64,000 nt of DNA from Octopus vulgaris. Its lineage: Eukaryota. The notes beneath the pieces were generated by a model that was given only the letters and a program-made list of their open reading frames with translations, searched no databases and was not told the origin of the DNA. Where the stretch lies: contig OX597830.1 in the NCBI GenBank assembly GCA_951406725.2, positions 51,026,001 through 51,090,000 on the forward strand, given 5' to 3'. A program made the translations under genes and the position numbers. Each line of letters starts with the position of its first letter. The stretch's first letter is position 1. Below, one piece after another: positions 7,990 to 57,905 of this stretch.

Positions 7990-8358
7990 TTGCATGTATA
8001 GGAACAGGAGCGAAGAGAGAAGATTAGTTCTTGTTTACGGAGAAGGCGGGAGTCCTGATAGCCCCTGGGCAAAGACAATCTGAACATTATAACACAGGTT
8101 TATACCGAATGACTGGTAAAGCGAGACCGGGGTGTGATTGCCGAGACTGAAGTCTTGGAGGTGCTCCGTGAACCGTTCAGCCAAGCGGGTTCCCGTTTGA
8201 CTGATGTACAGAGAAGTACAGAAAGAGCATGAGATGCAGTAAATGACATTGCTAGAAGTGCAGGTAAAGAAGTCGGTGACAAGAGAGGGACGATGATGGG
8301 TGCCTATGAGAATGGTGGTGTTAGAGAGGTAGGGGCAAGTGCAAAAGCGTGGGCGAGG
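7990..8358 (-). pseudogene. Penelope-like retroelement GIY-YIG endonuclease fragment
   Basis: CTCPYL...FTCTSSNVIYCISCSFCTSLYISQTGTRLAERFTEH...PV, then after a frameshift SRLLRKQELIFSLRS. This is the typical PLE Cys-rich linker plus GIY-YIG C-terminus. Confidence 0.9.
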
Positions 8359-29516: not shown

Positions 29517-29614
29517 TTAGGATTAGGGTTAGGGTTACGGTTAGGGTTTAAGGTTAGGGTTTAAGGTTAGGGTTAGAACTAGGATTAGGGTTAGGGTTAT
29601 GATTAAGTTTAAGG
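29517..29614 (+). repeat. Degenerate interstitial (TTAGGG)n tract
   Basis: About 16 units of TTAGGG and variants. Confidence 0.9.
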
Positions 29615-30201: not shown

Positions 30202-30380
30202 AGGCGCATGCATTGCTGTGTGGTTAGAAGTTTGCTTCCAAACCACATGGTTCCTGGTTCAGTCCCAGTGAATGGGATCTTGAGCAAGTGACTTCTACTA
30301 TAGCCGCGGTTCTATCAAAGCCCTGTGAGTGGATTTGGTAGAGGGAAACTGAAAGGAGTCTGACCTATAATGTGTGTGTG

Positions 30381-48480: not shown

Positions 48481-48651
48481 AAAAGAAGACACAGAAACCG
48501 TCAAATTTAGTCCCCAAAATTTATATTCATACAAAGATTCACCCACGCCCGCACATACACAGATGCAAATGCACGCACACACGTGCATATATACATGTAT
48601 ATGTATGTATATATGTATATAAATATATATACATACATGTATATGTATGTA

Positions 48652-48720
<69 letters not shown>

Positions 48721-48815
48721 AATTTATAAGATAAGGGCAAAAGAAGTCTGCTCGTGGCTTGGTGCTTGCTTCTTCCATGGGTATGAGTAAGTGTTTCATT
48801 TATATCTCGCGTATG

Positions 48816-48874
48816 TGCCGCTGAAGAGGGGAAAATTTCTTGTGAATTAACCCCGAAATTGGACCAATACGGTA
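48816..48874 (+). ncRNA. Type I hammerhead ribozyme (minimal stem III)
   Basis: TGCCG-CTGAAGA-GGGG...CCCC-GAAA-TTGGACCAA-TA/CGGTA. All core nucleotides and three stems are present; predicted AUA cleavage after 48869. Confidence 0.88.
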
Positions 48875-49281
48875 ATAACGAATTTTTTAGACATTTCTAT
48901 CGGTTTGTTTCGAGACGCATAAATTTAATGGTTATCGACAATTTTTTTTGTTTCGGCGTATCTGGCATTAGAATTTTTCTTCTGCCCTTATCTTATAAAT
49001 TATGTATAAATTTTACCTTTAAAGGCATTTTTGATATGCTGGCCATTGATAAAAAATTTTTCTTCGAAAAAAATTTTATCCTATATCAATTATAAATAGA
49101 TTAGTGTTCACTTCCGGATTCTATCCTTCTGTGAAAGTTTCTAGTTCGAATCACACCTGTCTCGTGGTGCGCCGAAGATTTTTCTATTTTGGATATATTT
49201 GGGGTACTTAAGTCTGCTCGTGGCTTGGTGCTTGCTTCTTCCATGGGTATGAGTAAGTATTTCATTTATATCTCGCGTATG

Positions 49282-49340
49282 TGCCGCTGAAGAGGGAAAA
49301 ATTTCTTGTGAATTAACCCCGAAATTGGACCAATACGGTA
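49282..49340 (+). ncRNA. Type I hammerhead ribozyme, second tandem copy
   Basis: TGCCG-CTGAAGA-GGG...CCC-GAAA-TTGGACCAA-TA/CGGTA; predicted cleavage after 49335. Confidence 0.88.
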
Positions 49341-49557
49341 ACAACGAATTTTTTAGAGATTTCTATCGGTTTGTTTCGGATCGCATAAATTTAATGGTTA
49401 TCGACATTTTTTTCGTTTCGGCGTATCTGGCATTAGAATTTTTCTTTTGCCCTTATCTTATAAATTATGTATAAATTTTACCTTTAAAGGCATTTTTTGA
49501 TATACTGGCCATTGATAAAAATTTTTTCTCGAAAAAAAGTTTACCCTATATCAATTA

Positions 49558-49619
<62 letters not shown>

Positions 49620-50225: not shown

Positions 50226-50588
50226 GGCGCAGGAGTGGCTGTGTGGTAAGTAGCTTGCTAACCAACCACACGGTTGCGGGTTCAGTCCCACTGCGTGGCA
50301 TCTTGGGCAAGTGTCTTCTGCTATAGCCCCGGGCCGACCAATGCCTTGTGAGTGGATTTGGTAGACGGAAACTGAAAGAAGTATGTCGTATATATGTATA
50401 TATGTATGCGTGTGTTTGTGTGTCTGTGTTTGTCCCCCTAGCATTGCTTGACAACCGATGCTGGTGTATTTAGGTCCCCGTCACTTAGCGGTTCGGCAAA
50501 AAGAGACCGATAGAATAAGTACTAAAAGGTGGTGCTCCAGCATGGCCGCAGTCAAATGACTGAAACAAGTAAAAGAGTAAAAGAGTAA
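50226..50588 (+). mobile_element. SINE family D, young near-full-length copy
   Basis: GGCGCAGGAGTGGCTGTGTGG, GGGTTCAGTCCC, CORE-like CTTGGGCAAGTGTCTTCT, an internal TA/TG tract and tail (AAGAGTAA)n. Confidence 0.92.
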
Positions 50589-50594
50589 ATGAGT

Positions 50595-57579: not shown

Positions 57580-57905
57580 GAATATTTCTTTCTAAATTCT
57601 TAGTGACTTTATTGCATCTTCCGCCAAATTTGGCTGCCTAGTCTAAATGTTTGCACATCGATCTAAATGATTGCTGAGTGGAATTTTTTCCTGTACAGGT
57701 CGCGAATGTTTTTACTGGTGAACCTTCGTGGCCAATGTAATTTTCACCACATCCGCAGCGAGTTATCATATAATTGGATTTTCCAGGAAAGTATGCAATA
57801 TTATGCATTAAAATTTGGTCCTTATTTGAAACGATACTCTGAATCTTCGAATATATCAACACAAATTACACAATTTGTTCTTCCGCACATTTTTCCCGAA
57901 TTATA
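57580..57905 (-). pseudogene. Second, more decayed Penelope-like GIY-YIG fragment
   Basis: KMCGRTNCVICVDIFEDSEYRFK, then NYMITRCGCGENYIG (CxxxxCxxC linker plus IY...YIG). Confidence 0.7.

Follow-up and report, generated by a model that had tools for sequence, protein, structure and literature searches.

The element at positions 48720-49558 of the window, the whole stretch of 64,000 nucleotides that was analysed, belongs, as a single insertion, to a repeat family that is dispersed and non-coding and carries a hammerhead motif. It is probably a retrozyme that was copied from a predicted 466-nt circular RNA by the reverse transcriptase-endonuclease (RT-EN) of a Penelope-like element (PLE). Of the parts of this reading, PLE-type two-primer insertion is very likely and a circular template is quite likely. 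The tie to PLE machinery is suggested by the fixed two-ended insertion of copies in (TA)n repeats. The original prediction, which had read the locus as a retrozyme, stands in its fixed period, its lack of an open reading frame and its Penelope-type mobilization, but has to be revised in its permuted start points and in the minimal hammerhead that it ascribed to such elements.

The element lies between two TA microsatellites and contains a direct repeat (48744-49092 and 49210-49558) with a period of 466 and about 95% identity. Sequence reading and alignment reproduced the coordinates, the motifs and the 466-nt period of the earlier description to the base. Units are numbered here from the first base past the predicted cut, u1 being 48870. 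The features of the locus are the following:

48587-48719, no strand: left-flank (TA)n/(TG)n microsatellite, likely the target site of the insertion (tandem array 48587-48712; family-wide TA bias)
48720-48745, minus strand: short inverted arm, u108-133, with its outer end at site A (sequence reading, arm mapping)
48744-48745, no strand: head-to-head arm junction with 2-nt microhomology (arms overlap by 2 nt; gap -2, L001)
48744-49558, plus strand: long direct arm, u341-466, u1-466 and u1-224 (1.75 units), with its outer end at site B (alignment, arm mapping)
48816-48875, plus strand: first type I hammerhead, with every stem intact and a cut predicted after 48869 (sequence, folding, family pairing)
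48870-49335, plus strand: cut-to-cut monomer, 466 nt, 34% GC, non-coding, the predicted circular RNA (circular fold z -2.2)
48960-49045, plus strand: conserved stem-closed domain with site A, hairpin at about 48992-49008, end near 49002 (family alignment)
49003-49093, plus strand: tail of about 90 nt that separates site A from site B; a long AT hairpin (about 49048-49080) immediately precedes B (end mapping, alignment)
49100-49160, plus strand: conserved motif block and candidate promoter, with CACTTCCGG, GTTCGAATC at 49144 and the E-box-like CACGTG (putative function)
49200-49270, plus strand: long conserved hairpin upstream of the hammerhead, u331-400, local z -3.2 (folding, alignment)
49282-49341, plus strand: type I hammerhead 2, stem II down to 3 bp, predicted cut after 49335 (alignment, folding)
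49560-49616, no strand: right-flank (TA)n (tandem array)

The 26-nt inverted copy at the 5' junction and the (TA)n on both sides are present as described beforehand. However, the inverted stub is not a side feature but the second arm of a two-primer event. It matches unit 2 exactly (49442-49467) and unit 1 with one mismatch. The rare allele u126 A is common to the stub and both units, while u113 T is common to the stub and unit 2, and the two units share variants at u126, u195, u352, u354 and u384. Compared column by column with the family majority, the window copy deviates at 13 of 458 and 12 of 210 columns; it is about 2.5-5% diverged, compared with a difference of 2.5% outside CpG for the copies of its subfamily, and it may be silent. 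The candidate promoter block (u225-300) sits between the two hammerheads, and upstream of u341 there is no unit sequence from which transcription could begin ahead of hammerhead 1, so that the production of a monomer here would depend on read-through from flanking DNA. Since hammerhead 2 is weakened and unit sequence upstream of u341 is lacking, the predicted release of a monomer by the window copy is uncertain.

Hammerhead 1 consists of stem I (TGCCG/CGGTA), CTGAAGA, stem II (GGGG/CCCC), GAAA, stem III (ATTGG-A-CCAAT) and AUA. Two complete and intact hammerheads had been predicted; this holds for hammerhead 1, but hammerhead 2 differs by a private G>A change that turns one pair of stem II into A.C. 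No relevant Rfam match was found for the whole window at gathering level or for the locus at E<=10, and the isolated hammerheads fold no better than shuffles (z -0.9 and +0.2), so the case for the motif is built on the family. A degenerate pattern of the hammerhead core has 1,733 matches in the genome and none for the reversed control. Among 177 loci, 169 motifs were recovered, 94 of them distinct. In the distinct motifs, pairs 1-5 of stem I, 1-4 of stem II and 1-5 of stem III are 88-100% paired; in stem I the 3' strand, and in stem III the first pair, were fixed by the search pattern itself. Pairs are swapped between motifs, G-C and A-U in stems I and II and U-A and C-G in stem III. In 27 chosen motifs, 97.7% of the cells are paired, compared with 22-45% in slid controls, and 6 of 18 pairs, including the stem II extension, change on both sides. 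These changes follow the subfamily splits, so the covarying pairs represent few independent events; on the covariation-pairs measure, the shuffle count was 114 of 500.

Minimal hammerheads had also been ascribed to metazoan retrozymes, but the one found here is not minimal. Stem III is an 11-12-nt near-palindrome with a variable 1-2-nt centre that has 4 bp in the monomer and 5+5 bp in the dimer, and stem II is extended. Stem III alone does not fold, its self-duplex is at -8.9 kcal/mol, and the monomeric hammerhead fold lies about 1 kcal/mol above the MFE. Judging from these models, either the monomeric or the dimeric hammerhead may cleave, with the dimer favoured. Retrozymes carry canonical type I motifs, and those of invertebrates cleave well as monomers, according to the available text (PMC7229834).

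A unit search of the 2.8-Gb host genome yielded 3,059 first-look candidates, 40 of which were scored, at 89-100% identity, and a 42-nt core has 98 exact occurrences. At least four subfamilies can be distinguished, with 70-90% identity and periods of 461-472 (one of 514), 476 and about 497 nt. The conserved period that had been expected of other copies is borne out at 461-472 nt in the window subfamily. The tandem state is the minority in the family. Two complete hammerheads on the same strand occur in 6 of 88 core-bearing insertions, the window locus and five others, and among 129 insertions the candidate promoter block lies upstream of two cut sites only in L013 and L029 (the latter by inspection). 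One subfamily (L242-L257) has an identical hammerhead in many copies among the matches listed (G000:C1), and a unit of about 497 nt whose tail contains a hairpin in duplicate; this subfamily may be the youngest. Additionally, contigs of organisms A to D from five public runs (X8, X15, X18, X19 and X20) cover the unit at 85-99%, so the family is common to several species labels. These contigs have TA loose ends at site A (organisms A and C) and site B (organism B) and cross the cut site; being only guessed to be RNA, they cannot show strand, ends or circles and count neither way, and no run on record as RNA contained the unit.

The longest ATG frame on the circularized unit is 55 aa and its two overlapping stop-to-stop frames have no Pfam match, in keeping with the predicted lack of credible coding capacity. 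The mapped copies have no coding frame in the unit, and their arms, when read upstream, return into the same unit. A full Penelope reading frame between the repeats was also looked for, and no RT-EN frame lies upstream of or between the repeats in the mapped loci, where a fixed period is found instead. As circles, whole units fold better than 30 shuffles (z -2.2, -2.0, -5.4 and -4.7). In the family alignment, conserved stems surround sites A and B and a long hairpin precedes the hammerhead; the apex of the latter, near u370-375, is a frequent arm junction. The site A domain comprises stem columns 106-115/191-200, with one compensatory pair, and a hairpin in columns 149-165.

Based on its motifs, the block at 49100-49160 is a candidate promoter. 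The B-box-like GTTCGAATC is conserved across three subfamilies and shows a G/A change that leaves its consensus intact, the E-box-like CACGTG is found in most copies and mutated in the window copy, and CACTTCCGG is presumably ETS-like. The B-box-like motif at 49144 was correctly predicted, as was the lack of a convincing A box. No A box was seen in the unit and its sense strand has nine runs of 4-8 T, so use by Pol III appears doubtful. The combination expected of a Pol III SINE, an A box and a B box free of internal T-run terminators, is therefore not seen here. Elsewhere in the window, B-box-like motifs lie at 30256 and 46124 and a degenerate (TTAGGG)n array of 13.5 copies lies at 29517-29599. 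The window also contains a SINE-like element at 50227-50590, with a B-box-like motif at 50278, which we take to be tRNA-derived and of a kind found in octopus genomes; at other loci (e.g. L242), the retrozyme has often inserted into the TA tail of this element.

The insertion anatomy was established from 136 mapped loci, 129 of them unique. Two head-to-head arms are present in 88 of the 129 insertions and one arm in the remaining 41. Their outer ends cluster at two sites downstream of the cut site, A (about u133) and B (about u224). Both ends lie at these sites in 66 of the 88 two-armed insertions: 65 are A+B, one is A+A and none is B+B. The sole A+A case continues to site B behind a later insertion and is thus an interrupted A+B. 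One or both ends are elsewhere in the other 22, and 3 of the 41 single-armed insertions show a detectable stub of the other site; off-site ends and single-armed insertions likely reflect later decay. Restricted to exact-core insertions, the counts are 46 A+B, 1 A+A and 13 other. Subfamilies 2-4 behave similarly. Of their 50 loci, 24 are single-armed and 26 have two arms or more (20 A+B, no A+A, no B+B, 5 other and one four-armed), which gives 20 A+B among 25 simple two-armed insertions. When pooled, 85 of 86 two-armed insertions with both ends at the sites have one A and one B end, where independent ends would give half mixed pairs, and in these mixed pairs the tail is at one end only, with two alternative fixed 3' ends. 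Instead of the freely permuted start points anticipated for other copies, the ends are therefore fixed at A and B. The paired fixed ends, the inverted arm, the one-sided tail and the (TA)n bias agree with the Penelope-type mobilization that had been proposed.

Either arm may be long. The A arm is the longer one in 32 of the 65 A+B insertions, and 59 of the 65 B arms pass through site A. The 65 arm junctions comprise 29 with an overlap of 1-5 nt, 7 with a larger overlap, 5 blunt joins and 24 with extra bases. Two loci about 11 kb apart, L012 and L025 (G000:C1), have the same junction and right flank in inverted orientation and represent a local duplication; they were counted twice in the end, junction and diagnostic-column tallies and dropped from the rare-allele and strict duplication tallies. 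At L162, an element of about 490 bp (1650-2149) is inserted exactly at site A of a retrozyme arm, and its ends are presumably Helitron-like.

Of the 91 A ends, 80 adjoin a tract of (TA)4 or more, as do 82 of the 88 B ends (162 of 179 together), against a background of 8.5% of 2,816 flank windows. In the unit, both sites are followed by TATAAAT (TGTAAAT at site B in subfamily 2), where, judging by base complementarity, a TA-ended primer could pair. The tail between A and B is about 90 nt in the window subfamily and 85-110 nt in the others. At L102, a 15-bp target duplication lies in ordinary non-repeat DNA with no TA tract, which indicates that the target pre-exists the insertion. Duplications of 14-15 bp at L105, L137 and L179 include the TA tract. 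These four loci speak against a (TA)n made by the element itself, and that explanation was abandoned. A strict count of target duplications was not above the null (4 of 64 versus 3%), and L102 was missed by that count. No LTR layout was found in the 129 mapped insertions.

The template appears to have been continuous and single in each insertion. When 21 columns diagnostic of the subfamilies are examined, arms belonging to the same insertion differ in 25 of 391 comparisons, versus 34% between insertions, and tandem units differ in 19 of 313, versus 36%. Rare alleles are shared at 3.5 and 2.3 per 1000 columns within an insertion versus 0.155 between insertions, a 15-22-fold excess. All 169 crossings of the cut site are free of indels, and of 130 arm ends just 2 fall within 5 nt of this site. 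Thus, one RNA species was copied and was continuous across the cut, as the original prediction implied. On account of this lack of indels, end-to-end template jumping on cut monomers was discarded as the principal route. A ligated circle would explain both the continuity at the cut site and the re-homogenizing of newly arisen variants; the same could hold for an uncleaved transcript from a homogeneous array.

The latter alternative retains the same two-site PLE insertion and replaces the circle by an uncleaved linear multimer from one or a few homogeneous arrays, with the hammerhead acting in a different step. An indel-free cut site with no pile-up of ends fits uncleaved RNA equally well, a 4.5-unit array is present at L225 in subfamily 2, and hammerhead mutants of a PLE were still inserted, with unprocessed RNA as the main substrate (PMC11167929). 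Nevertheless, this explanation seems rather unlikely. The agreement of tandem units at the diagnostic columns would not be restored in a purely linear lineage, and several subfamilies would each need a homogenized array. The 98 exact cores listed never form a run of more than two, and the longest mapped arm of the window subfamily has about 2.75 units, although collapsed arrays could be missing from the assembly. Moreover, the junctions of parents are not re-copied, as among the 65 junctions only those of L012 and L025 repeat, and these loci share flanks.

Two further explanations can be considered. LINEs that target microsatellites exist, and the B-box-like motif, conserved in three subfamilies, could mark a Pol III unit, so that the copies would be a SINE- or satellite-like repeat moved by LINE twin priming or by DNA duplication. 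This is improbable given that the two arms of L1 twin priming are not known to overlap, whereas most B arms here (59 of 65) extend across site A. The repeat also has two alternative fixed 3' ends and no poly(A) or simple-repeat tail of its own, the absent A box and the nine T runs speak against a Pol III unit, and DNA duplication gives no new junction for each copy. It is very improbable that the copies are 5'-truncated terminal repeats (pLTRs) of an unsampled autonomous PLE. Their arms, tail and (TA)n bias are indeed those of truncated PLEs in the available description (PMC8557442), and the helper search took in 95 PLE loci of many thousands of candidates. Yet the arms, read upstream, go from the hammerhead into u466-u1 and leave no room for a reading frame, the PLE fragments near some loci are on the other strand or downstream, and in the three loci read the nearby PLE fragment is separated by its own UTR and (TA)n.

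The preferred reading, copying of a circular RNA by a PLE, can be cast as a series of steps. A rare source copy with two hammerheads on the same strand would be transcribed, its RNA cut to the monomer and presumably closed by a host ligase. As the ends and duplications suggest, the GIY-YIG nuclease of the helper would nick AT-rich DNA, in most cases (TA)n, once on each strand, the two nicks lying about 14-15 bp from each other. Each nicked 3' end would then pair by a few bases with a UAUA-containing site in the RNA, the observed ends marking where priming would have occurred. One primer would be used at site A and the other at site B, with the same site never used twice. Both cDNAs would be extended upstream through the ligated cut site, sometimes for more than one round, and after stopping at variable points they would be joined head to head, often by 1-5 nt of microhomology. 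For the window copy, this predicts a B-primed cDNA of 815 nt and an A-primed cDNA of 26 nt. More tentatively, one PLE complex might hold the circle at its two start sites, one for each nicked strand, roll around it with strand displacement and join the cDNAs. If true, the insertions would amount to a large natural data set that proves retrotransposition from circular templates in animals, and the one-sided PLE tail would be explained, here with 90 nt and a helper that shares no sequence with its parasite.

The host genome holds many PLEs, including unbroken 781-aa frames with RT and GIY-YIG. In a young family of this type, flanked by (TA)n, the 3' ends fall at two points separated by 35 nt (13 and 4 of 17 loci). 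Its members (L051-L067, on many contigs) have the variant hammerhead core TTGATAA and tandem CCAAT/TGACGTC-like boxes in the 3' UTR. The helper search used a GIY-YIG profile and two divergent nuclease queries, and compared the 95 PLE loci with three natural units. No sequence shared with the unit was found among these loci, a sample from many thousands of candidates that represents several lineages, apart from nested copies and AT-rich noise. Specifically, a match at L042/L052 was rejected as helper homology, being a retrozyme copy nested in the (TA)n end of the PLE. Site B weakly resembles the end of the tail in the 781-aa family (both TCCTAT..TATAAATA), but this AT-rich similarity was given no weight. 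Relaxed hammerhead patterns returned only deletion variants of the retrozyme family, and a DNA search with the tail region revealed no related autonomous element. Thus, it is from the insertion anatomy that we infer a PLE as helper, while the sampled PLE loci share no sequence with the unit. The window itself contains decayed coding fragments of PLE nucleases at 8119-8352 and 57652-57893, both on the minus strand (tblastn).

Animal retrozymes have been proposed to spread as circular RNAs by means of PLE proteins, a proposal supported in the available papers by co-occurrence and homology. The present family provides mechanistic footprints in hundreds of insertions, namely PLE-type paired ends, a strict assignment of one start site to each strand, a single template for every insertion and no arrest at the cut. 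Two questions can now be addressed at the bench with the 466-nt RNA and the published in vitro PLE system (PMC11167929): whether circles are templates of retrotransposition in animals, and why the PLE tail is at one end. No prior description of the family or of such end statistics for retrozymes was found in the literature, but repeat libraries such as Repbase or Dfam, or the supplements of the cited papers, may list the family by a different name; the words ribozyme and retrozyme have no match in the text of PMC13282606.

The family shows every testable feature of a retrozyme, with a type I hammerhead per unit, a short, low-GC, non-coding unit and tandem copies, and it works like a PLE parasite. 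In the available text of PMC7229834, metazoan non-LTR retrozymes have units of 150-450 bp, cleavage and circles are shown in coral, mussel and axolotl, and PLEs are named as candidate helpers. The present family resembles them in its short, low-GC, non-coding unit with one type I hammerhead each, its thousands of copies, some in tandem, the lack of LTRs in the mapped insertions and its co-occurrence with PLEs, and a mussel family of 350-390 nt represents the nearest host group if the host is a mollusc. In contrast, the unit is longer here (461-497 nt), most copies are dispersed and two-armed with less than one unit per arm rather than arrays, and stem II is extended and stem III an 11-12-nt near-palindrome. 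Circles and cleavage were demonstrated for those retrozymes; for the present family they are predicted. Insertion anatomy is not treated in that available text ('inverted' has no matches), which leaves the helper open.

A preprint, as far as its available text goes, gives retrozyme units of 51-972 bp, links vertebrate retrozymes to pLTRs by homology and co-occurrence, and reports cleavage of one of nine tested frog dimers (bioRxiv 10.64898/2026.07.22.740005). It favours local array amplification, and ends are not analysed in that text ('tail' has no matches). The family shares with these retrozymes a non-autonomous partnership with PLEs, a length within their range and many monomeric derivatives, but no helper homology was found here and the end structure is PLE-type.

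EN+ PLEs are described, in the available texts, as having a tandem/inverted structure, a one-sided tail of 30-40 bp and a (TA)n bias (PMC8557442, PMC3846280), and a PLE protein nicks both DNA strands and extends them from two internal sites of the RNA, which delimit the tail (PMC11167929). As in these elements, the family has a partial tandem and an inverted head-to-head arm, a one-sided tail, AT-rich targets with a (TA)n bias, apparent target duplications of about 8-15 bp at a few loci and a hammerhead upstream of two RT start sites next to stem-loops (PMC8557442, PMC3846280, PMC11167929), and intact PLEs are present in the genome. Unlike EN+ PLEs, it has no reading frame, and its tail is about 90 nt rather than 30-40 (35 in the local 781-aa family). 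Its start sites carry UAUA matching a (TA)n primer, whereas the start of the anole PLE is not homologous to the cut DNA. The hammerheads of PLEs are minimal, and circular templates have been proposed for them in the available text (PMC4209133); the hammerhead of the family is not minimal. Chlamys elements such as MRC1, from green algae, are likewise non-coding PLE parasites with pLTRs and head-to-tail multimers, but the available text describes them as sharing 3' sequence with their helpers and as belonging to a clade without canonical hammerheads (PMC8557442), whereas no sequence shared with the 3' end or pLTR of a helper was found among the 95 PLE loci. Overall, the tail length, the primer-matching start sites and the dispersed two-armed copies set the family apart from known retrozymes and PLEs, and it is a variant of the animal non-LTR retrozymes whose anatomy ties these to PLE chemistry.
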